Part shown: positions 49,158 to 58,945 of the stretch, one piece after another | Layout: each line of letters starts with the position of its first letter | How positions within the stretch are numbered: position 1 is the first letter of the stretch | From: Chloroflexota bacterium | Lineage (GTDB): Bacteria > Chloroflexota > Limnocylindria > Limnocylindrales > CSP1-4 | Length of the DNA stretch: 58,945 nt | Reading direction: 5' to 3' | Assembly (NCBI GenBank): GCA_042408925.1 | Contig: JBHOQO010000078.1 | Span: forward strand, 1-58,945 | The notes under the pieces: generated by a model | What the model was told of the DNA's origin: nothing | The model's input: only the letters and a program-made list of their open reading frames with translations | Database searches by the model: none | Position numbers and translations under genes: made by a program

Positions 49158-49626
49158 CGCCGCCGCATCGCGCGCCGAATCCGAGCGAACCGCGAGGCGC
49201 GGCCCAGCGAGTCGGCTGCCCCGTCAGAGCGGCGATGACGTCGGAGTCCTTGTCGGAGGGCCGGCGACGGAGCGGACCCCGACGGGCACGCTCCCACCCG
49301 GTCCGCCGCGCCCCGAGCCGGCCCGGTCAACGACCTCGCGAAGGGCGGCGTGCGCAGCGTCGGTCGCCAGCTTCGTCCCCGGCGAACGCCGCCGCCGGGG
49401 GCGACGTGTCCAGACCGTACCGTCGAGTGGCGGCGCGCCATCGAGAAGACGCACGATGCTCGCGACTCCTGCGCAGCACGGCAAGCGGTGGACCGCTGCC
49501 TCCAGTCCGGCATACCCGTCCCTCGCGACGGCCGCCCGCTGTTCCGTTCGACCGAAGCTCGTCCCGGTCCCGGCCTCACCCGCATGGCAGCCGCACGGCC
49601 GCCCAGCTGGTCGGTTCGCCCGGCGA

Positions 49627-50010
49627 TTCTCCTGGTTACTCGCGGTGGTGGTAGAGCGCGCGACGGGCCCCGAGATTTCCACGTCCTCGGAGCGGTGATC
49701 GTGCTCGGGCGCCCTCGGCGGGGCAGCGATCCGGGGCTCTGGAGTTCCGAATTACTCGCGGTGGTAGTGAAGCGCGCGACGGGCCCCGAGATTTTCACGT
49801 CCTCGGAGCGGTGATCGTGCTCGGGCGCCCTCGGCGGGGCAGCGATCCGGGGCTCTGGAGTTCCGAATTACTCGCGGGGTGAGTACCGTGGAAGAACCGA
49901 CTCCCGGTCTACTACCCCGGCGAGTATCCGAGAATTCCGGCCGGCTCCGGCGGGCGGCGTACTACCACCACGAGTAACCGAGAATTCCGGCCGGCTCCGG
50001 CGGTCGGCGG
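49627..50010. repeat. 116-bp tandem repeat (x2 plus partial) followed by an inverted 50-bp tandem repeat (x2), sharing the TACTCG..GGTAGT core
   Basis: TTACTCGCGG at 49636, 49752, 49868; TACTAC..CGAGTA.CCGAGAATTCCGGCCGGCTCCGG at 49910 and 49960. Confidence 0.9.
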
Positions 50011-50242
50011 TCCGCGACGGGGCGACCGAGCCCCACGCAGTTCCGGCTCCCCTCGCTCGCGCTCATCCCCTCGCCGCCGGGGGCGTACGCCTCGGCACGG
50101 ACGACGCCGCGGGGCCCTGCTCGCCGAGCCGGCCGCCCAACGGGTGTCACGCGTCCTCGTCGGCGCGATGGCGGCCGGAGCGTCCGGCCGGCGGCCTTGC
50201 GCCGGCGCCTGCCACAGGTCGAGCGCCGTGGGCGCGGACCCC

Positions 50243-50270
50243 TTGACGTTTCGGGATTGGTCTATACAAT
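50243..50270 (+). promoter_or_regulatory. Sigma70 promoter overlapped by a HutC/DasR-type GntR operator
   Basis: TTGACG-N16-TACAAT; ATTGGTCTATACAAT at 50256-50270 resembles dre/NagR sites. Confidence 0.78.
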
Positions 50271-50328
50271 CGCGCCAATTCTGGCCGTCGCCCGAGGCGA
50301 CGGCGTCCCGACAACGAGGAGAGGGAAG

Positions 50329-51117
50329 GTGCACAGCCGCCCAACACGAGCGTCGGTCGCCCGGGGCCGCCCCGTCGCCCCGCCGCGCGCGCCTGCCCGT
50401 CCCGCCCGAACCCTCCCCGTCTACCTCCAGATCGAGGAGGAGCTCGCCGAGCGGATCGAGGCCGGGGAGCTCGCCCCCGGCTCCCGACTGCCGACGGAAC
50501 GCGAGCTCTCCGGAGCCCTCGGCGTCAGCCGGATGACGGTCCGGGCAGCCCTCGCCCGCCTCGAGCAGCGGGGCCTGATCCGGCGCCTCCAGGGGAGCGG
50601 CACCTTCGTCGCCGAACCGAAGCTCCGCCAGGACACGAGCCACCTGCGATCCTTCTTCGAGGCCTCCCTCGGCCAGGGCCTGGTGCCGGCCAGCCGTCTC
50701 ATCGAACGGGCCGAGATCCTCGCCACCCGGCACCTCGCCCAGGAGCTCGACCTCCGGGTCGGCGAGCCCGTCTACAAGGTCGTTCGGGTCCGCTCGGTCG
50801 CCGGCGTCCCGGTCGTCCTCGAGACGTCGTTCTTCCCCGCCCGGATCGTGCCCGGCCTCCTTGACCTCGATCTCGAGGGGTCCTCCATCTACCGGCTCAT
50901 GGAGCAGCGCTACGGCGCCCGCCCCGTTCGCGCCCGTCAGGCGCTCGAACCCATCGCCGCCGGGACTCTCGAGGCCGAGCTCCTCGGGGTCGCCGCCGGT
51001 AGCCCCCTCATGCTCGTCGAGCGGACCGCCTGGGATGCCGGCGGCCGGGCCGTCGAACACGCCCGCGACCTCTATCGCGGCGACCGGAGCCGCTTCGTCG
51101 GCGAGCTGACGCTGTGA
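50329..51117 (+). CDS. GntR family regulator, HutC/UTRA subfamily
   Basis: LPTERELS, VSRMTVRAAL, QGSGTFV; UTRA domain ending YRGDRSRF. Confidence 0.93.
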   Translation: MHSRPTRASVARGRPVAPPRAPARPARTLPVYLQIEEELAERIEAGELAPGSRLPTERELSGALGVSRMTVRAALARLEQRGLIRRLQGSGTFVAEPKLRQDTSHLRSFFEASLGQGLVPASRLIERAEILATRHLAQELDLRVGEPVYKVVRVRSVAGVPVVLETSFFPARIVPGLLDLDLEGSSIYRLMEQRYGARPVRARQALEPIAAGTLEAELLGVAAGSPLMLVERTAWDAGGRAVEHARDLYRGDRSRFVGELTL

Positions 51118-51224
51118 TCCGGAAGCGGACGGGAGGTGCGATGACGAGCTAGGGCAGCGACCGCGTCCTGTCGGCGGACCGATCCGCCGGCGTCCTCCCA
51201 TGAGGGTTCGAGGAGGGAGAACAC

Positions 51225-52835
51225 GTGACTGCCATCGCCACCCCGACTCCCCGTCTCTTCGTCCGAAAGACGTCCGGTCTCATCCGGACCATCGGCGTCG
51301 GCGGCGCCATCGTCTTCGGCGTCCACTGCATCAGCCTCTCGTCGTCGGGGATCCTCACCTTCTACTCGGTCCCCGGCCTCTGGCCCGGCGCGAACATCCT
51401 CGTCGTGCTCACGCTCTCGGCGATCCTCTGCGCGATGCACGGCTACACGTTCAGCCAGATCGGAGCCGCCGCCCCGAGAGCCGGCGCCGACTACACGCTG
51501 GCGAGCCGGACCCTGAGTCCCTGGCTCGCCTTCCCGGCGAGCTTCGCCCTCGTCCTCTTCAGCGGCCTCGTGGCCGGGAGCCTCATCGCCTGGATCCCGA
51601 CCGTCGCCCTGCCGGCCTTCCTCCGGGCCACGGGGATCCTCTACGCCCAGTCGTGGGCGACGGACCTGGCGACGTTCTCCCAGAGCCAGGCCGGGATCCT
51701 CGTCTTCGGGACGGCCGGGGTTCTCATCACCCTGATCAGCCTCTTCTTCCCGACCCGGACCGTCGTCCGGGTCATGGGGATCGGCTTCGTCCTCGGCCTC
51801 GCCGCCTGGGCCGTCATCCTCTTCGCCTTCGCGACCGGCTCGGCAGAGACGTTCCAGACGAACTGGGACAAGTACGTCCCGGGCGGGCCGTACGCCCAGG
51901 TCATCCCGACCGCCGAGGCGAACGGGCTCGTCTTCGACCGGAGCTTTGCGAACACGGCGATCGCCGGCCTCATCATGGGCTTCTGGATCTTCTACGGCTA
52001 CTACATCCCGACCTTCTTCGCCGGGGAGGTGAAGGAGGCGCCGCGAACGCTCCTCTGGGGGGCCTGGGGCTCGCTCGCCGTGACCTGGGCGATCTTCGCC
52101 GGCGGCGTCCTCCTCTTCACCCGCTTCGTGCCCCAGGACTGGATGGCGGCCGAGGGCTACCTCTTCATCAACGGGGTCGAGAACTTCGACTCGAATCCGT
52201 TCGTGACCTTCTACGCCTCCGTCCTCCAGCCGAACGTCATCTTCTTCCTCATCATGGCGGTCGGCTTCATCTACACGCTCATCAACCTCGCCCAGACGTA
52301 CTTCTTCTACGCCAGCCGGATCATGTTCGCCTGGTCCTTCGACCGGATCGTCCCCGAGTGGATCTCGAACGTCCACGCCGAGACCGGCAGCCCCCGGAAC
52401 GCCGTCCTCCTCATCGCCGTCCTCGCCGAGCTCGGCGTCCTCGCCTCGGCCTTCTATTCGGCCCTCTTCGTCCAGCTGAACTTCGTCTTCTACGCCGCGA
52501 TCACGATGATCGTCCCGATCGTCGCGGCGATCGTCTATCCGTACCGCAAGCGCCACCTCTGGGAGCAGGGTGCCGGGCACGTGAAGGCGATGCTCTTCGG
52601 CCTCCCGTCGATGACCGTCGTCGGGATCGGGACCCTCGCCTTCATCCTCCTCCTCGTCGCCTCGCCGTTCCTCTGGCCGGCCGTCGGCTTCGGCGACCAG
52701 CAGGGCCAGGCCCTCGCCATCTTCGGCGTCATCGTCCTGGCCGGGGTCCTCATCTTCGCCGCGGCCCGCTGGTACCGGCAGAGCCGCGAGGGGATCGACA
52801 TCATGGCCACCTTCCAGGAGATTCCGCCGGCCTGA
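51225..52835 (+). CDS. APC superfamily amino acid/amine permease
   Basis: LFVRKTSGLIR, PRAGADY, FFAGEVK, SRIMFAWSFDRIVP; about 14 TM helices. Confidence 0.9.
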   Translation: MTAIATPTPRLFVRKTSGLIRTIGVGGAIVFGVHCISLSSSGILTFYSVPGLWPGANILVVLTLSAILCAMHGYTFSQIGAAAPRAGADYTLASRTLSPWLAFPASFALVLFSGLVAGSLIAWIPTVALPAFLRATGILYAQSWATDLATFSQSQAGILVFGTAGVLITLISLFFPTRTVVRVMGIGFVLGLAAWAVILFAFATGSAETFQTNWDKYVPGGPYAQVIPTAEANGLVFDRSFANTAIAGLIMGFWIFYGYYIPTFFAGEVKEAPRTLLWGAWGSLAVTWAIFAGGVLLFTRFVPQDWMAAEGYLFINGVENFDSNPFVTFYASVLQPNVIFFLIMAVGFIYTLINLAQTYFFYASRIMFAWSFDRIVPEWISNVHAETGSPRNAVLLIAVLAELGVLASAFYSALFVQLNFVFYAAITMIVPIVAAIVYPYRKRHLWEQGAGHVKAMLFGLPSMTVVGIGTLAFILLLVASPFLWPAVGFGDQQGQALAIFGVIVLAGVLIFAAARWYRQSREGIDIMATFQEIPPA

Positions 52836-52926
52836 ACTGTTGCGGCGGGCCGGTGGGACCCTCCCCGAGGCGCCCCCGCCGGCCCGCCGCCCCCCGACCC
52901 CCCAAGCGAACGGAGCCCGCCCACCG

Positions 52927-53916
52927 ATGCCGTCCCTCTTCCGCCGCGCCGACCGACCCGGACCCACCGGCCACATCCGGATCATCCAGACCGCCGACCT
53001 CCACGGCTCGAACGCCGCCTTCCGGAAGTTCCTCGCCGCCGCCCGGCAGCACGGGGCGAACCACGCGATCATCACCGGCGATCTGACCGGCAAGGCGATC
53101 GTCCCGATCATCCGCCAGAACGGCCGATACGAGGCGTGGCTCTTCGACAACCGCGAGGTCATGGAAACCGAGGCCGAGCTCGAGCGCTTCCGGACCCGGG
53201 TCGGCGACGTCGGGATGTACGACCACGTCTGCGACCCCGACGAGGCACGGGCCCTAGCGGCCGACCCCGAACGGCTCCACGCCCTCTTCGTCGAGAAGAT
53301 GAACGGCCGACTCCGGGAGTGGCTGACTCGGGCCGCCGAGGTCCTCGCCCCGGCCGGCATCCCCCTCTGGGTCATTCCCGGCAACGACGACGATCCCTCG
53401 GTCGACCCCGTCCTCGCCGAGAGCGAGTACGCCCGGAACGTCGATCATCAGGTCGTCGAGCTCGACGAGCGGCACGAGCTCGTCAGTATGGGCGACACCT
53501 CGATGACCCCCTGGGCCTGCCCGCGCGACTACCCCGAGGAGCACATGGAGCGGGTCGTCGCCGACCTCTTCGGCCGGGTCCGCAACCCCGCCGGCGCGGT
53601 CGTGAACATGCACTGTCCGCCGCGCGACACGAAGATCGACCAGTGCCCGGCCCTGACGAAGGACCTCCGGATCGAGTACGAGGCCGGCCAGGTCCTCATG
53701 ACTTCGGCCGGGTCGGCCGCGATCCGACAGGGCCTCGAACGGCTCCAGCCGGTCCTCTCGCTCCACGGCCACATCCACGAGGCCCGGGGCGTCCATCGGA
53801 TCGGCCGGACGCTGTGCCTCAATCCGGGCTCCGAATACGCCGAGGGGATCATGAAGGCGTCGATCGTGAACCTCGAGCCGACCCGGGTCAAGGGCTACAT
53901 CCTCATCAGCGGATAG
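52927..53916 (+). CDS. Calcineurin-like metallophosphoesterase (Icc-related)
   Basis: DLHG, GDLTG, PGNDD, HCPP, HGHIHE, NPGSEY. Confidence 0.88.
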   Translation: MPSLFRRADRPGPTGHIRIIQTADLHGSNAAFRKFLAAARQHGANHAIITGDLTGKAIVPIIRQNGRYEAWLFDNREVMETEAELERFRTRVGDVGMYDHVCDPDEARALAADPERLHALFVEKMNGRLREWLTRAAEVLAPAGIPLWVIPGNDDDPSVDPVLAESEYARNVDHQVVELDERHELVSMGDTSMTPWACPRDYPEEHMERVVADLFGRVRNPAGAVVNMHCPPRDTKIDQCPALTKDLRIEYEAGQVLMTSAGSAAIRQGLERLQPVLSLHGHIHEARGVHRIGRTLCLNPGSEYAEGIMKASIVNLEPTRVKGYILISG

Positions 53917-53950
53917 GAGCGTCGATGGGCGACCGACGGGAGGCGCGCGC

Positions 53951-54712
53951 GTGAGCGGCGAGACCAGCTACCCGGCCGATATCCTCGGCGGCCACGCCCG
54001 CCGGGTCATCGAGGCGGCAGCCGCCGCCGGCGTCCTCCTCCGACTCACCGGCGGGCTCGGCGTCCTCGCCCGTAGCCGAGATCTCGGCGGCCTCGATCTG
54101 GCGGGGCGCCCCTTCCACGACATCGACCTCGTCGGCCGACTCCGCGACGTCCGCCGCCACGACGGGCTCTTTGCCGATCTCGGCTACGAGGCGGACCGGG
54201 CCGTGAACACCCAATTCGGGACCGTTCGCCGCGTCTACCACCACCCCGACGGCTTCCACGTCGACCTCTTCCTCGATCGCCTGGAGTTCTGCCACCGGAT
54301 CGACCTCGAGGGGCGCCTCGAGCTCCACCCGGCGACCCTCGCCCCGGCCGACCTCCTCCTCGCCAAGCTCCAGATCGTCGAGCGGAATCGAAAGGACCTC
54401 GTCGACGCCGCACTCCTGCTCCTGAACTTCGATCTCGTGCCCGGCGACCCGACGGCGATCGAGCTCGACCGGATCCTGGCGATCACCGCCGACGACTGGG
54501 GCTTCCACACGACCGCTCGCGACTTCCTCGACATCCTCGAGGCGAGCCTGCCCGGGCTGGGCTTCGCGGGGGACGCCCAGGCCCGGATCGGCGACCGGCT
54601 CCGCCAGCTGGCGACGGCGATCGACGCCGCTCCAAAGTCGCTCCGCTGGCGGGCTCGCGACCGGATCGGTCGCCGGGTCCGCTGGTACCGGGTCGTCGAG
54701 GAGGTGCTCTGA
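53951..54712 (+). CDS. Uncharacterised nucleotidyltransferase-fold protein
   Basis: TGGLG, HDIDL, VDLF acidic triad pattern; DLLLAKLQ...KDLVD. Confidence 0.68.
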   Translation: MSGETSYPADILGGHARRVIEAAAAAGVLLRLTGGLGVLARSRDLGGLDLAGRPFHDIDLVGRLRDVRRHDGLFADLGYEADRAVNTQFGTVRRVYHHPDGFHVDLFLDRLEFCHRIDLEGRLELHPATLAPADLLLAKLQIVERNRKDLVDAALLLLNFDLVPGDPTAIELDRILAITADDWGFHTTARDFLDILEASLPGLGFAGDAQARIGDRLRQLATAIDAAPKSLRWRARDRIGRRVRWYRVVEEVL

Positions 54713-57021
54713 TGCCGCGCGGACGCGCCTCGACGCTCCGCGCCGACGAGCCGGTTTCTTCGCCTCGCTCCGAGCGGGCGGCCGTCGTCGTCATCGGCGG
54801 CGGCGTCGTCGGCTGCGCGATCCTCTGGGAGCTCGCCGAGCGCGGCATCCCGGCGCTCCTCGTCGAGAGGGAGCCGGATCTCTGCGAGGGGACCTCGAAG
54901 GCGAACAGTGCGATCGTCCACACCGGCTTCGACGCCCGACCCGGGACGGTCGAAGCGGCGATGCTCCGCCGGTCGGCGGCCCGCTGGCCGTCGCTGGTCG
55001 AGCAGCTCGGCGTCCCCTTCCTCCCCGTCGGGGCGATCATGCTCGCCCGGACGCCCGACGCCCTCGCCCACCTCCGGCGGGTCGTCGAGCCGAACGGCCG
55101 GGCCCTCGGGGTCGACGTCGCGCTCCTCGACCGGGACGAGGTCCGGGCCCTGGCCCCCTACGTCGCCGACGACGTCCTCGGCGCCCTCTCGATCTCCGAC
55201 GAGGCCGTGATCGATCCGTTCTGGCTGACCCGTGCCTACGCCGAGGCGGCGATCGCCGGCGGGGCGGTCGTCCGCCTCGGACGGACCGTGGTCGGTCTCG
55301 AGGTCGAGCCGCGCCGGGTCCGTATCCGCCTCGACGATGGCGGCGTCATCGTGGCCGACCAGGTCGTCGATGCGGCCGGGATCGACGCCGATGCGGTGGC
55401 CGCCCTGGCCGGCGAGCGGAGCTTCTCGATCCGGCCGCGGAAGGGCCAGTTCCTCGTCTCCGAGGAGACCTTTGGCGTCGATCGGATCGTCCTCCCGGTG
55501 CCCGGCCCGATGGGCAAGGGGATGCTCGTCACCCCGATCGTCTTCGGCGGGCTCCTCCTCGGCCCGACAGCCGTCGACGTCGACGACAAGCGCGATCTCG
55601 GCGTCGACGCCACCGACCGGGAGCGGATCCTCGCCGCCTGCCGGGCGATGGTGCCGGCCCTCGCCGACGCGGTCCCGATCCGGCAGTTCGCCGGGCTCCG
55701 CCACGTCAGCTCCGAGGGCGACTTCATCCTCCGGCCGGCGCGGGTGTCGGACCGGCTCTTCCTCGCCGCCGGGGTCCGCTCGACGGGGATCTCGACCTCG
55801 CCGGGGATCGCGGAGTTCGTCGCCGACGCCGTCGTCGCCCTCCGCGGCTGGCGGCCGCGGACGCGCCGCAGACTCGCCCCGCCGCCCCTCGAGCTGCCCG
55901 AGGCGCCCGGTCCCGTCGTCTGCCTCTGTCGGTCGATCGCCGAGGGCGAGATCGTCGCCGCCGCCCGACGCCCGACGGCGCCCCGGACCCTCGATGCGCT
56001 GAAGCGGCGCGGCGGCGCCACCTTCGGGGACTGCCAGGGCAACCTCTGTGCCGTCGAGGTCGCCCGGATCCTGGCCCGGGAGCGTCACGTCCCGCTCGCC
56101 GCCATCGAGAAGCACCGCCGCGGCTCGTGGTTGTGGCGCGAACCCGACCCGGGACGGGCGCCGTCCGTCGAGCGCGAGGCGACCGCCCGGCGACCGGCCT
56201 CCGACAACCGGCTTGAGCCCCCCGGACCGTCCTGGGACGTCGTCGTCGTCGGGGCCGGCGCCGCCGGGAGCGGGGCAGCGGGGGCGGCCGCCGAGGCGGG
56301 CCTCGACGTCCTCCTCGTCGACCGCGAACGGCTGTCGACCCGGGTCGGGCCGGAGGTCGGGGTCGCCGCTTGCTTCGGGGCCACGGTCGTCGGGCTCGAA
56401 CCCGCATCCGACGGCTGGCGGCTCGCGATCCAGCTGGCATCCGGGCCGCGGTCGATCGGGGCCCGAGCGGTCGTCCTCGCCAGCGGCGCCTACGTGGCTC
56501 CGCGCGAGCACCGCTCGATCGCCGGCCCCCGCCCGGCCGGCGTCATGACGAGTGACCTCGCCCGGCGGATCCTCGATGCCGGGCTCCTGCCCGGCGAGAC
56601 GGTCGGGCTCGTCGGGACCGCCCACGCCGAGGGGCTCGTCGAGCGCCTCGAGGCGGCCGGGGTCCGGGTCGTCCGACTCCCCGAGGCCCCCGACGCCGTC
56701 GCCGGCGAGGCGCGTCTGACGGCCGTCCGGGTCGCCGGCTCCTGGGTCGCCCTCGACACCCTCATCCTCGCCGACCGGCTCGTGCCCCAGACGTTTCTCC
56801 TCCGGACGGTCGGCCTCGCCGACGGACGGCCCGGCGTCCCGGCCCCGGTCGACGAGCTCGGCCGCCTGCCGCTCGAGGGGCTCTGGGCGGCCGGCTGCTG
56901 CGTCCGCCCCGACCCGACCCACCAGCGATGCGCGGCGGACGGGACGGCCGTCGGGCGGCGGCTGGCGGCCGCCCTCCGGCCGGCGGTCGGCCCCGCGGGC
57001 GCCCATCCCGATCGCCGGTGA
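54712..57021 (+). CDS. Fused FAD oxidoreductase: GlpA/LhgO-like + BFD-like [2Fe-2S] + pyridine nucleotide-disulfide oxidoreductase-like
   Basis: IGGGVVG, GTSKANSAIVHTG, RPRKGQF, FAGLR; VVCLC...GDCQGNLC; second VVGAGAAG, GPRPAGV, GLWAAG. Confidence 0.85.
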   Translation: MPRGRASTLRADEPVSSPRSERAAVVVIGGGVVGCAILWELAERGIPALLVEREPDLCEGTSKANSAIVHTGFDARPGTVEAAMLRRSAARWPSLVEQLGVPFLPVGAIMLARTPDALAHLRRVVEPNGRALGVDVALLDRDEVRALAPYVADDVLGALSISDEAVIDPFWLTRAYAEAAIAGGAVVRLGRTVVGLEVEPRRVRIRLDDGGVIVADQVVDAAGIDADAVAALAGERSFSIRPRKGQFLVSEETFGVDRIVLPVPGPMGKGMLVTPIVFGGLLLGPTAVDVDDKRDLGVDATDRERILAACRAMVPALADAVPIRQFAGLRHVSSEGDFILRPARVSDRLFLAAGVRSTGISTSPGIAEFVADAVVALRGWRPRTRRRLAPPPLELPEAPGPVVCLCRSIAEGEIVAAARRPTAPRTLDALKRRGGATFGDCQGNLCAVEVARILARERHVPLAAIEKHRRGSWLWREPDPGRAPSVEREATARRPASDNRLEPPGPSWDVVVVGAGAAGSGAAGAAAEAGLDVLLVDRERLSTRVGPEVGVAACFGATVVGLEPASDGWRLAIQLASGPRSIGARAVVLASGAYVAPREHRSIAGPRPAGVMTSDLARRILDAGLLPGETVGLVGTAHAEGLVERLEAAGVRVVRLPEAPDAVAGEARLTAVRVAGSWVALDTLILADRLVPQTFLLRTVGLADGRPGVPAPVDELGRLPLEGLWAAGCCVRPDPTHQRCAADGTAVGRRLAAALRPAVGPAGAHPDRR

Positions 57022-57527
57022 GCGAGCTCCTTCGGGATCGGATCCGGGTCGCGGTGCCGCCCGCGGCGATCTGGGCGATCGTCGACGACGCCGGCGCCCT
57101 CGGCCGCGTCCTCCCGGGTGTCGAGACCATCGAAGCCCGCGGGCCGGGGGCGTTTGCGGCCACGCTCGCGGCGAAGATCCAGTTCCTGACGATCCGCGCC
57201 GACGTGGAGGCGACCCTCGAGCGGACGGCGCCGAGTCGGGCGCGACTCCGGCTCGCCGGCCGGCCGCGGGGCCTCGTCGGGACGTTCACGGCCGAGATCC
57301 CCTTCGAGGTTCGGGCGGCGGCCGACCCGGTGGGCGGTTCGGAGGCAAGCGAGGTCGAATACGCCGTCGACCTGGCCGTCGGGGGCCGCCTCGCGGCGTT
57401 CGGCGCCCCGCTCCTGCGCGACACCTTCCGGCGCCAGGTCGCGATCCTCGTCGCGAACGTCGAGGCCGAGCACCGCCGCGAAACCCACGAGACGCCGGCC
57501 GGGCAGGCCGCCCCGGACCCCCAATGA
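57018..57527 (+). CDS. CoxG/SRPBCC family protein
   Basis: GTGA overlap; PPAAIWAIVDD..LGRVLPG, VGGRLAAFG. Confidence 0.8.
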   Translation: MSELLRDRIRVAVPPAAIWAIVDDAGALGRVLPGVETIEARGPGAFAATLAAKIQFLTIRADVEATLERTAPSRARLRLAGRPRGLVGTFTAEIPFEVRAAADPVGGSEASEVEYAVDLAVGGRLAAFGAPLLRDTFRRQVAILVANVEAEHRRETHETPAGQAAPDPQ

Positions 57528-58945
57528 GCGCCGATCTCATCCTCGCCGTCGACCAGGGGACGACCTCGACTCGGGCGATCGCCTACGACCGGGCACTCTC
57601 GGTCGTGGCCCAGGCGGCCGTGCCGCTCGAGACCCGCCACCCCCGACCGGACTGGGCCGAGCAGGACCCGCTCGAGATCCTCGATTCCGTCGTCGAGACC
57701 GTCACCCGGGTCCTCGACGCCGTCGGCGGGCGGGCGCGGATCGCGGCTGCGGGGCTCGACAACCAGGGCGAGAGCGTCGTCGCCTGGGAGGCCGACACCC
57801 TCGTCCCGCTCTCCCCGGTCGTCGTCTGGCATTGTCGCCGCTCGCTGCCGATCGTCGAACGGCTCCGGGCCGCCGGCGCCGAACCGGCCGTTCGGGAGCG
57901 GACGGGCCTCCCCCTCGACCCCTACTACTCGGCCGGCAAACTCACCTGGCTCCTCGAGCACGTCCCCGCCGTCGGCGCGGCCGCCCGGCAGGGGACCCTC
58001 CGGGTCGGGACCGTCGACGCCTGGCTGACCGCCCGCCTCGACGAGGGACGGGCCCGGACCGACCCCTCGACCGCCTCGCGGACGCAACTGTTCTCCCTGA
58101 ATGAGCTCGACTGGGACCCCGAGCTCGGCCGGCTCTTCGGCGTCCCCGAGGCCGCCCTGCCGGCCATCGTCCCGACGGCCGGTGACCTCGGCGAGCTCCG
58201 CCATCCGCGCTGGGGCGGCCCGCTCCCGCTCCGGGCCCTCGCCTGCGACCAGCAGGCCGCCCTGGCAGGACACGGCGGCTTCGAGCCGGGAGCGCTCAAG
58301 GCGACGTACGGGACCGGCGTCTTCGTCGTCGGCAACGCCGGCGACCGCCGCCGCGCCGACCCCACCCTCGAGACGTCGGTCGGCTGGCGCCTCGCCGACG
58401 GCAGCCTGGCCACGATCCTCCAGGGCGGCGTCTTCACGGCCGGGGCATTCATCGACTGGCTCCGCGACGATCTCGGCTGCATCGCCGATCCGAGGGAGAC
58501 CGAGACCCTGGCCCGGAGCGTCCCCGACACCGGCGGCGTCGCCGTCCTGCCCGCCCTCGCCGGCCTGGGTCCGCCGTGGTGGCGGCCCGACGCCCGGGCC
58601 GTCGTCCGGGGCCTGTCGGCCGGGACGGGCCGCGCCCACCTGGTCCGGGCCAGCCTCGACGGTCTCGCCCACCTCGTCGCCGATCTCGTCGAGGCGATGA
58701 TCCCGGCCCTCGGGACCGGCCCCGACCGTCTGCGGGTCGACGGCGGGCTCACCGCGAACGGCTACCTGGTCAGCCGCCAGGCCGACGTCCTCGGGCTCCC
58801 CGTCGAGGTCGCCGCGGCCGAGGAATCGACGGCCCTCGGGATCGCCGGGCTCGCCGGCCTCGGGGCCGGGCTCCTCGGCGTCGAGGCGATCCGGCGGGCG
58901 AACCCGGTTCGCGCCCGGTTCGAGCCGGCCCTTTCCGACGCCGCC
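57524..58945 (+). CDS. FGGY carbohydrate kinase, glycerol kinase-like (3' end outside window)
   Basis: ATGA overlap; AVDQGTTSTRA, EQDP, NQGES, DPYYSAGKL, TASRTQL, DQQAAL, KATYGTG, VDGG. Confidence 0.88.
   Translation, partial: MSADLILAVDQGTTSTRAIAYDRALSVVAQAAVPLETRHPRPDWAEQDPLEILDSVVETVTRVLDAVGGRARIAAAGLDNQGESVVAWEADTLVPLSPVVVWHCRRSLPIVERLRAAGAEPAVRERTGLPLDPYYSAGKLTWLLEHVPAVGAAARQGTLRVGTVDAWLTARLDEGRARTDPSTASRTQLFSLNELDWDPELGRLFGVPEAALPAIVPTAGDLGELRHPRWGGPLPLRALACDQQAALAGHGGFEPGALKATYGTGVFVVGNAGDRRRADPTLETSVGWRLADGSLATILQGGVFTAGAFIDWLRDDLGCIADPRETETLARSVPDTGGVAVLPALAGLGPPWWRPDARAVVRGLSAGTGRAHLVRASLDGLAHLVADLVEAMIPALGTGPDRLRVDGGLTANGYLVSRQADVLGLPVEVAAAEESTALGIAGLAGLGAGLLGVEAIRRANPVRARFEPALSDAA

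Follow-up and report, generated by a model that had tools for sequence, protein, structure and literature searches.

What does an operon do that places an amino-acid-type permease, a metallophosphoesterase and a nucleotidyltransferase ahead of enzymes resembling those of glycerol catabolism? The question is raised by seven co-oriented genes on the + strand of contig JBHOQO010000078.1 of a Chloroflexota bacterium, which run from position 50243 to the contig end; the window analyzed here is this entire contig (C24; 58,945 bp), one of the 156 contigs of a 2.8-Mb assembly (GCA_042408925.1). An earlier note made from the sequence alone had described the same seven genes and assigned them to a pathway that its author could match to no described one, for the uptake and breakdown of an amino-containing glycerophospho- or polyol-phosphate compound such as a lipid headgroup. 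We divide the locus into two modules. Module A, consisting of an APC-superfamily permease, the metallophosphoesterase and a small nucleotidyltransferase (NTase), is an undescribed permease-linked trio. Module B, consisting of a dehydrogenase that uses flavin adenine dinucleotide (FAD), a CoxG protein and a kinase, is a variant of the described system of a kinase, an FAD-dependent glycerol-3-phosphate dehydrogenase and a CoxG anchor. That both belong to one transcription unit repressed by a HutC-type regulator and serve an amine-type glycerol analogue is, taken as a composite reading, a proposition to which we give an even chance.

Gene content

The first gene encodes a 262-aa GntR-family regulator of the HutC subfamily, with winged helix-turn-helix and UTRA domains (50329..51117), and is followed by those for the permease (536 aa; 51225..52835), a predicted metallophosphodiesterase of the GNDD type (329 aa; 52927..53916) and the NTase (253 aa; 53951..54712). 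Module B comprises a 769-aa FAD dehydrogenase (54712..57021), the SRPBCC protein CoxG (57018..57527) and a GlpK-like FGGY kinase (57524..58945), the gene for which is incomplete: the window spans the full contig, whose end cuts it. The last four genes are coupled by overlapping stop and start codons, as the earlier note had reported, at TGATG (54710-54714), GTGA (57018-57021) and ATGA (57524-57527). Its gene set likewise stood, while its gene starts had to be revised and its kinase proved truncated. We placed the regulator start at a GTG behind the Shine-Dalgarno-like GAGGAGAGGGAAG, the longest reading frame beginning at 50197, and the metallophosphoesterase start at the ATG at 52927, from which homologues of 328-329 aa give 100% coverage. 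The GC content across the operon region is 67-79%, and the best protein matches carry the names Chloroflexota or Candidatus Limnocylindrales.

A permease with two companion enzymes

With 40.3 bits against a Pfam AA_permease cut-off of 24.6, the permease belongs to the APC superfamily, and it reaches no named subfamily (36.5 bits versus the 556.8 of TIGR00909). Members of its distinct subfamily, about 23% identical overall, have in common the motifs MPRSGGDY, GE[IV]K and FAWSFDR..PE, an N-terminal [ST]-G motif and, at the extreme C terminus, the conserved tail G[IV]D[IV]...FKEIPPE.

The phosphoesterase served as the marker for the trio: its family accounts for 5650 proteins at E <=0.001 among 8000 candidates scored, and for at least 573 confirmed stretches in genome_contigs. 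The counts in the next two sentences refer to the 80 best phosphoesterase-family loci, 43 of which have at least 4 kb on either side of the phosphoesterase gene. Permease and NTase genes lie within 4 kb of the phosphoesterase in 61 of the best 80, and the 43 well-flanked loci, which include both bacteria and archaea, divide into 39 with the complete trio, two with the permease only and two with the NTase only. An FGGY kinase is found within 6 kb in 28 of the 43, a co-occurrence that the earlier note had anticipated. The trio ranges over Chloroflexota, Actinomycetota, Spirochaetes, Acidobacteria, Bathyarchaeia and Nitrososphaeria. Within the window's own family, 16 of the 17 loci retrieved contain the complete trio; the permease and NTase genes stand 7-9 kb off in L023, and on the 8.4-kb contig L025 there is only the phosphoesterase.

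Copy numbers of the three families were equal in 39 of 41 related genomes, which are not independent samples: permease, phosphoesterase and NTase stood at 0/0/0 in 26 genomes, 1/1/1 in eight, 2/2/2 in four and 3/3/3 in one. The two exceptions were G003, with an NTase fragment only, and G009, with the phosphoesterase only. One of the 1/1/1 genomes, G008, has a decayed cassette represented by fragments (C7 541840-542602 and C9 1085333-1085845), those of the permease and phosphoesterase carrying in-frame TAG stops and a partial NTase gene lying on another contig.

The pathways beside the trio are diverse. They include choline/ethanolamine kinases with demethylase-like fusions of DAO and GCV_T domains, BtpA with an FGGY kinase and a TIM-barrel isomerase-like protein, arginase-family enzymes, amidase, amidohydrolase and hydantoinase, type III glutamine synthetase, and class III and class V aminotransferases. 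Between these cassette types, identity falls to about 25% for the permease, 35-43% for the phosphoesterase and 31-40% for the NTase. Because the trio attaches to so many unrelated pathways, because module B also runs with another permease and without the enzyme pair (see below), and because the genomes G150, G113 and G184 keep phosphoesterase-family genes, the trio marker, elsewhere in the genome, our conclusion is that the enzyme pair works for this type of permease and not for the chemistry of this pathway. A search of full-text literature by gene combination and Pfam names, in article texts without their supplements, returned no paper on the trio.

Two recurrent associations were noted in passing. 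Paralogous trio cassettes in the same family (L026, L030, L032, L033 and L037) have as neighbors choline/ethanolamine-kinase genes and DAO+GCV_T fusions, one or two of each, the fusions resembling dimethylglycine or sarcosine dehydrogenase; this arrangement hints at the breakdown of methylated amino-alcohols as phosphate esters. In the Anaerolineales loci L050, L074 and L054, the trio operon ends in every case with the XylB-like kinase followed by a conserved protein, approximately 230 aa long, that matches the NERD domain weakly.

Predicted activities of the enzyme pair

Nucleotidyltransferases of the Pol-beta superfamily are marked by the motifs hG[GS] and [DE]h[DE]h together with a third acidic position. 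In the NTase, G34, D57, D59 and D105, invariant in all 24 aligned sequences, supply these elements, and the predicted fold (pLDDT 94.8) agrees with membership of the superfamily. The closest fold matches included ANT(2'')-Ia (Z 12.8, rmsd 3.2, 154 residues aligned), MenT1 (Z 12.4, 168 aligned), the fungal NTase-like structure 5uvd (Z 12.1) and LnuA (Z 10.8, 136 aligned). At 12-19% identity, ANT(2'')-Ia, LnuA and MenT1 have the catalytic Gly and three Asp in common with the window NTase, which differs from them in an additional conserved, basic C-terminal helical part (K229, W233, R236) and in its catabolic setting, as opposed to one of resistance or toxin-antitoxin function. The protein fits no curated family: it scored 22.4 bits against the 31.2 of Pfam PF14907 (NTP_transf_5), and a search of the ESM Atlas with it returned only unnamed 'nucleotidyltransferase family' clusters. 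The NTase family nevertheless comprises 3085 representatives at 50% clustering, 1080 of them with E <=1e-30.

Calcineurin-like metallophosphoesterases are recognized by the motifs D-x-H, G-D, G-N-H-[DE], H and G-H-x-H. The corresponding residues of the window phosphoesterase (D24/H26, D52, N153/D154/D155, H229 and H280/H282/H284) are invariant in 26 sequences, the third motif reading GNDD and not GNH[DE], and the match to PF12850 (33 bits, cut-off 27) places the protein in the calcineurin-like group. Its model (pLDDT 94.9) has the same fold and dinuclear metal motifs as the structural-genomics proteins aq_1956 (2yvt; Z 25.2) and TT1561 (1uf3; Z 23.2), for which we know of no described function, and as MPPED2 (Z 21.6) and Rv0805 (Z 18.6), with Mre11 ranking between the latter two. 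By comparison with aq_1956, 234 of the 329 residues align; to judge from the secondary structure of the model, most of the roughly 95 that do not are located after the second metal motif and before the third, at about residues 56-145. A protein Ser/Thr phosphatase activity was set aside because no PPP-family phosphatase occurred among the 50 best fold matches, a comparison that does not exclude it.

Both enzymes appear to be catalytically competent and functionally coupled, and the two look like the maker and the breaker of a nucleotidyl phosphodiester. A natural fusion, P0121 (580 aa), joins a complete NTase through a 17-residue linker to a complete phosphoesterase. A search for longer, fused NTase forms yielded a single protein out of 8000 scored candidates, a result that says little about the rarity of such fusions. 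A second candidate, a 581-aa reading frame with phosphoesterase and NTase parts in L042 (10001-11746), was rejected: its last approximately 13 phosphoesterase residues are off-family, and it was not counted since an indel in a long-read assembly is the probable cause.

A glycerol-type module with an altered kinase pocket

The N-terminal half of the dehydrogenase finds its best match in GlpO of Mycoplasma pneumoniae (4x9m, E 8.7e-37). Its DAO domain scores 238.4 bits, with type-2 glycerol-3-phosphate oxidase as the best family match (E 1.2e-57), and in the alignment to 4x9m, a His within the stretch IVHTG is retained at the position of His51, the catalytic residue of the M. pneumoniae enzyme (PMC10726252). 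A BFD [2Fe-2S] domain follows, and the C-terminal part opens with a flavin-binding Rossmann motif; the best solved relative of this half is PH1363 (1y56_A, E 5.5e-5), the alpha subunit of a Pyrococcus horikoshii complex, while matches to NADH oxidases are weak and lower in the list (E 0.002 and 0.07). The two halves are encoded by separate genes in L149 and L150. As a whole, the dehydrogenase falls below curated cut-offs (195.7 versus 460 bits for NF033460; 130.3 versus 552.8 for TIGR03377). CoxG, identified by a COXG match of about 51 bits, is the probable membrane anchor of the dehydrogenase by analogy with Sulfolobus acidocaldarius.

In that archaeon, experiments have shown that a CoxG protein is encoded together with a glycerol kinase and a DAO-fold glycerol-3-phosphate dehydrogenase and that it brings the dehydrogenase to the membrane; two glycerol-active sets of the three genes are kept (Schmerling et al. 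2025, PMC11962113). Kinase, DAO-fold dehydrogenase and CoxG occur together in the window and again in L021, L022, L041, L042, L120 and L149-L154, and the idea that the locus has no described match therefore had to be abandoned for this half of the operon.

The kinase, for which GlpK is the best family match (E 6.8e-132), stays below the TIGR01311 cut-off for GlpK (440.3 versus 590.35 bits), a score lowered because roughly the last 25 residues are missing at the contig end; complete copies of the kinase occur in L021 and L022. Alignment places Gly82 where GlpK of Escherichia coli and Thermus has Arg83, a residue that hydrogen-bonds glycerol hydroxyls (PMC2680290); the six other glycerol ligands are kept (Glu84, Trp103, Tyr135, Asp245, Gln246 and Phe270 in E. 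coli numbering). The substitution is systematic. The window kinase and 10 other trio-adjacent kinases all read NQGE[ST] (11/11), the 30 best GlpK-like loci in a sample of 201 genomes of the phylum comprised nine of the Gly type and 21 of the Arg type, and in a single alignment, Gly was found in 19 of 19 module-linked kinases and Arg in 23 of 23 other GlpK homologues, the two types being separated at three further signature positions as well (183, 302 and 345).

Seven additional Gly-type loci were compared with seven Arg-type controls, each with about 9 kb on either side of the kinase gene, or less at contig ends. DAO+BFD and NADH-oxidase-like genes adjoin the kinase in all seven Gly-type loci, and CoxG together with a second, unrelated APC permease is present in six; none of the seven controls has the dehydrogenase and CoxG pair, L162 giving only a weak DAO match of 24%. 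Six of the seven Gly-type loci lack the trio and carry between CoxG and the kinase a more typical APC permease (AA_permease_2, E 1.9e-44). These six loci stem from about three genera and thus represent few independent cases. The APC permeases beside module B accordingly belong to two unrelated subfamilies, and no MIP (glycerol) channel was found beside it in annotated loci. The same genome does hold a canonical cluster on contig C140 (L118, 3500-10500), with a MIP channel, DhaK, DhaL, a GlpK with Arg83 (NQRET, 750.1 bits) and a GlpA-like dehydrogenase. Elsewhere, a Gly-type kinase is paired with a PhnW-like aminotransferase in a spirochaete locus, and a XylB-like kinase with a HisC-like aminotransferase in Anaerolineae loci, cassettes that fit an amino-alcohol phosphate theme. 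In L090, from the cultured Thermalbibacter longus, a Gly-type kinase accompanies the permease and the phosphoesterase.

Regulation and conservation of the operon

The regulator passes the Pfam cut-offs for both GntR (PF00392, 83.3 bits versus 27) and UTRA (PF07702, 147 bits versus 23.8), which assigns it to the HutC subfamily, and remains under every NCBIfam equivalog cut-off, the best being PhnR (146 versus 296.75), HutC (139.6 versus 220) and PhnF (134.8 versus 156.8). A sigma-70-like promoter, TTGACG-16 nt-TACAAT, lies upstream (50243..50270, + strand) with 10 of 12 matching positions, one site being found where 0.1 were expected in shuffled sequences. Operators of HutC-type regulators are of the type GT-N-TA-N-AC and lie near the regulated promoter. 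The candidate operator ATTGGTCTATACAATC (50256..50271, + strand), the core of which, GTCTATAC, conforms to this consensus, overlaps the -10 box, in support of the earlier proposal of a promoter with a HutC-type operator. At two or fewer mismatches, ATTGGTCTATACAATC matches nowhere else in the 2.8-Mb genome; L021, L022 and L038 have the identical sequence ahead of their orthologous regulator genes, and a TGGTCTA[TG]AC box precedes the regulator gene in all five closer orthologous loci (L038, L039, L041, L042 and L090). No second operator box was found in the 107-nt gap before the permease gene and no terminator-like site in 49600-53000; a search of Rfam gave no match in 49500-51300 at E <=0.1. 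Among the sequence runs listed for operon DNA, none is RNA.

The operon is a conserved unit, as the earlier note had supposed. All seven genes occur in the same order in L021 and L022, from the same genus, with protein identities to the window of 71-96% for six proteins and 89-91% for the regulator. In L041 and L042, also from Chloroflexota, the same set is arranged as dehydrogenase, CoxG, kinase, permease, phosphoesterase and NTase, L120 of that phylum is similar, and the short contigs L038-L040, L039 and L071 carry parts of the gene set. Regulator orthologues stand directly upstream of the permease in 32 of the 80 genome_contigs loci, in addition to L021 and L022. The operon ends with the kinase, since in L022 unrelated genes (DUF5666, a MalK-like ATPase and NUDIX) follow about 220 bp past it.

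Several features of the surroundings were recorded separately. A GntR/UTRA regulator 64% identical to that of the window heads a different operon in L157 (13206-17612), with an aldehyde dehydrogenase and a thiamine-diphosphate enzyme; a canonical GlpD-GlpK pair lies 2.8 kb away. Just upstream of the window's operon, at 49636-50010, are direct and inverted repeats with 69-nt and 50-nt units, members of a dispersed family without an Rfam match that has copies on eight other contigs of the genome: those on C102, C68, C121, C34, C2 and C146 extend over 125-261 nt at 86-95% identity, those on C60 and C5 are matches of only 31-33 nt, and C2 has additional tandem 50-nt units. DNA nearly identical to 50200-58945 was present in eight sequencing runs (89-98% of sampled words) and at 72% in a ninth; these are labeled as subsurface, freshwater and hot-spring metagenomes and come from three studies, one of which is possibly the source of the assembly itself.

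Proposed function and alternative explanations

In the reading that we favor, the kinase would phosphorylate the terminal hydroxyl of a glycerol-like C3 unit and the flavoenzyme would oxidize the adjacent 2-hydroxyl, passing electrons through its [2Fe-2S] and second flavin domains to the membrane, where CoxG would hold it. The two steps together would yield a ketoamine phosphate, which on chemical reasoning could collapse by a reverse Amadori reaction to glyceraldehyde-3-phosphate and an amine, so that the substrate would end as triose phosphate and an amine or ammonia. We take the substrate not to be glycerol, because the kinase has lost Arg83, the ligand of glycerol's distal hydroxyls, and the module is always served by amine- or amino-acid-type APC permeases, and infer a cationic or zwitterionic glycerol analogue with a distal end other than a hydroxyl, for which 3-amino-1,2-propanediol and N-(2,3-dihydroxypropyl) compounds are examples. 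Of the amino-containing glycerol-like substrate in the earlier note, the amine-bearing, glycerol-like part fits and the phosphodiester headgroup role is unsupported. In module A, the permease would be accompanied by two obligate partners that run a nucleotidyl 'writer/eraser' cycle, whose target would be either the permease, as a control of an electrogenic amine carrier, or its cargo; the carrier seems the better candidate by a modest preference. This role of the enzyme pair is a guess, held less firmly than the composite reading of the operon. The fuller picture of an APC permease subfamily of bacteria and archaea with a private nucleotidylation cycle, in which the NTase writes on carrier or cargo and the GNDD phosphodiesterase erases, feeding an amino-propanediol route here, we put forward tentatively, as more apt to be wrong than right.

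Several observations weigh against these proposals. The aminopropanediol idea rests on one lost ligand and the type of permease, and a Gly-type kinase with six of seven ligands kept might still use glycerol; S. acidocaldarius, too, has two glycerol-active sets (PMC11962113). The conserved catalytic His suggests oxidation of an alcohol rather than an amine, in which case the ketoamine phosphate would need an additional step that is assigned to no gene, and the operon of L022 ends at the kinase. Judging from the models, the NTase is near small-molecule O-nucleotidyltransferases and the phosphoesterase near nucleotide and nucleic-acid phosphodiesterases, so that cargo and protein would both fit as targets. 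Moreover, four of the 43 well-flanked loci are without one trio member, and G009 carries the phosphoesterase alone. A search for serinol and amino-alcohol literature gave no relevant pathway among the titles listed.

The simplest alternative is an ordinary second glycerol operon, its kinase and dehydrogenase acting on glycerol and glycerol-3-phosphate and the permease trio being an unrelated neighbor under the same regulator. The best family matches of both enzymes, the retained catalytic His and glycerol ligands, and the proven role of kinase, dehydrogenase and CoxG in glycerol use by S. acidocaldarius, in two copies (PMC11962113), all speak for it. Yet the exchange of Arg83 for Gly separates module-linked kinases from all others in the alignment, both enzymes are far under curated cut-offs, a canonical cluster with a MIP channel is present in the genome, the APC permeases adjoining the module are from two unrelated subfamilies, with no MIP channel found in the annotated loci, and the stop/start overlap couples the NTase gene to that of the dehydrogenase. 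We regard this alternative as unlikely, with a small but real chance of being right. An amino-containing glycerophosphodiester, a lipid headgroup such as glycerophosphoethanolamine or glycerophosphocholine, could instead be imported and cleaved as by GpdQ, with the NTase activating the phospho-alcohol and module B burning the glycerol part. GpdQ, a glycerophosphodiesterase, has the same fold as the window enzyme (Z 17.1, rmsd 3.1, 212 residues aligned), with no sequence-level match in a PDB search; a glycerol-type module lies downstream in the operon, and choline/ethanolamine kinases occur in several paralogous cassettes. But GpdQ ranks only 18th, behind 17 structures led by aq_1956 and TT1561; the C3 module occurs with neither phosphoesterase nor NTase in all seven of its additional loci, and the trio in turn partners arginase, amidase/hydantoinase, glutamine-synthetase-like and aminotransferase functions that have no glycerol link. 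The product poses a further difficulty: if it were glycerol-3-phosphate, the kinase would be superfluous, and if glycerol, the loss of Arg83 would be unexplained. We consider this explanation improbable, and an assignment of the phosphoesterase to a headgroup pathway is unsupported.

Two remaining alternatives concern the NTase. It might O-nucleotidylate an imported amino-alcohol, trapping or activating it until the phosphodiesterase resolves the ester, in a manner common to all substrates of the permease family. ANT(2'')-Ia and LnuA, both among its fold matches, add AMP to hydroxyls of amine-rich small molecules, the phosphoesterase is similar to the nucleotide phosphodiesterases MPPED2 and Rv0805, and the hydroxyl kinases of many partner pathways imply hydroxyl-bearing substrates. 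The arginase and amidase cassettes, however, suggest substrates without an obvious hydroxyl, most cassettes have separate kinases, the same C3 pathway runs with another permease and without the pair, and the tRNA-modifying MenT1 is an equally good fold match; we find such a general role on the cargo distinctly unlikely. Finally, the NTase resembles MenT1, MenT3/TglT and MenT4 in fold, and a MenT/AbiE-like toxin would make the locus a toxin-antitoxin or defense element. Its neighbors in annotated loci are instead the permease, the phosphoesterase and catabolic enzymes, here with an overlap with the dehydrogenase gene; its copy number follows that of the permease; and no antitoxin-type neighbor turned up in Pfam scans of neighboring genes. 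This reading, scarcely credible on such evidence, was rejected.

Relation to known systems

Module B has the same three components as saci_1117-1119 and saci_2031-2033 of S. acidocaldarius, namely a GlpK-type FGGY kinase, a DAO-fold FAD dehydrogenase and CoxG (PMC11962113). It differs in the kinase, which is without Arg83; in the dehydrogenase, which includes a BFD [2Fe-2S] domain plus an NADH-oxidase-like flavin domain joined by fusion, the Sulfolobus enzymes being without Fe-S cysteines according to that report; and in uptake, by an APC permease as opposed to facilitated diffusion. The Thermococcus type, GlpTk-NOX-MOX, likewise pairs a DAO subunit with an NADH-oxidase-like flavoprotein, and the two are fused in some protists (PMC11962113), as they are in the 769-aa protein of the window, whose halves find their best matches in the beta and alpha subunits of 1y56, a related P. 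horikoshii complex. A third subunit of the MOX/DUF1667 type was not seen in the window, where CoxG follows the dehydrogenase, and the second flavin domain, at about 260 aa, is short.

The logic of the operon resembles that of amine-conjugate operons such as frlABCDR of E. coli, which directs fructoselysine breakdown with a GntR/UTRA regulator, an APC permease and a kinase whose target is the hydroxyl part of an amine compound, and which releases a central sugar phosphate. The families of the kinase and the downstream enzymes are different, and frl has neither a nucleotidyltransferase nor a metallophosphoesterase. For the enzyme pair, the closest parallels are AmtB-GlnK-GlnD and GlnE with glutamine synthetase, in which a Pol-beta-type nucleotidyltransferase and a removing hydrolase are tied genetically to nitrogen-compound uptake; GlnD joins transferase and hydrolase much as the fusion P0121 does. 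Unlike these switches, the window operon has no PII-like target protein, and its putative eraser is a calcineurin-like metallophosphodiesterase in place of an HD domain or another NTase domain.

Implications

The window offers a simple test bed for these proposals, with a single cassette per genome, a clean pair of regulator and operator, a two-enzyme downstream pathway and a pocket in which one defined residue departs from that of glycerol kinase. It also widens the range of the CoxG-anchored type of dehydrogenase, newly described in archaea, to Chloroflexota. We know of no secondary transporter for which control by nucleotidylation has been described; if the proposed cycle is real, it would provide fast control or trapping for electrogenic amine uptake. 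The trio is common and widespread (at least 573 stretches, and 3085 NTase clusters at 50% identity), and microbes of soil and water seem to connect it to many nitrogen-compound pathways, so that the annotation of numerous genomes would gain from knowledge of its role.

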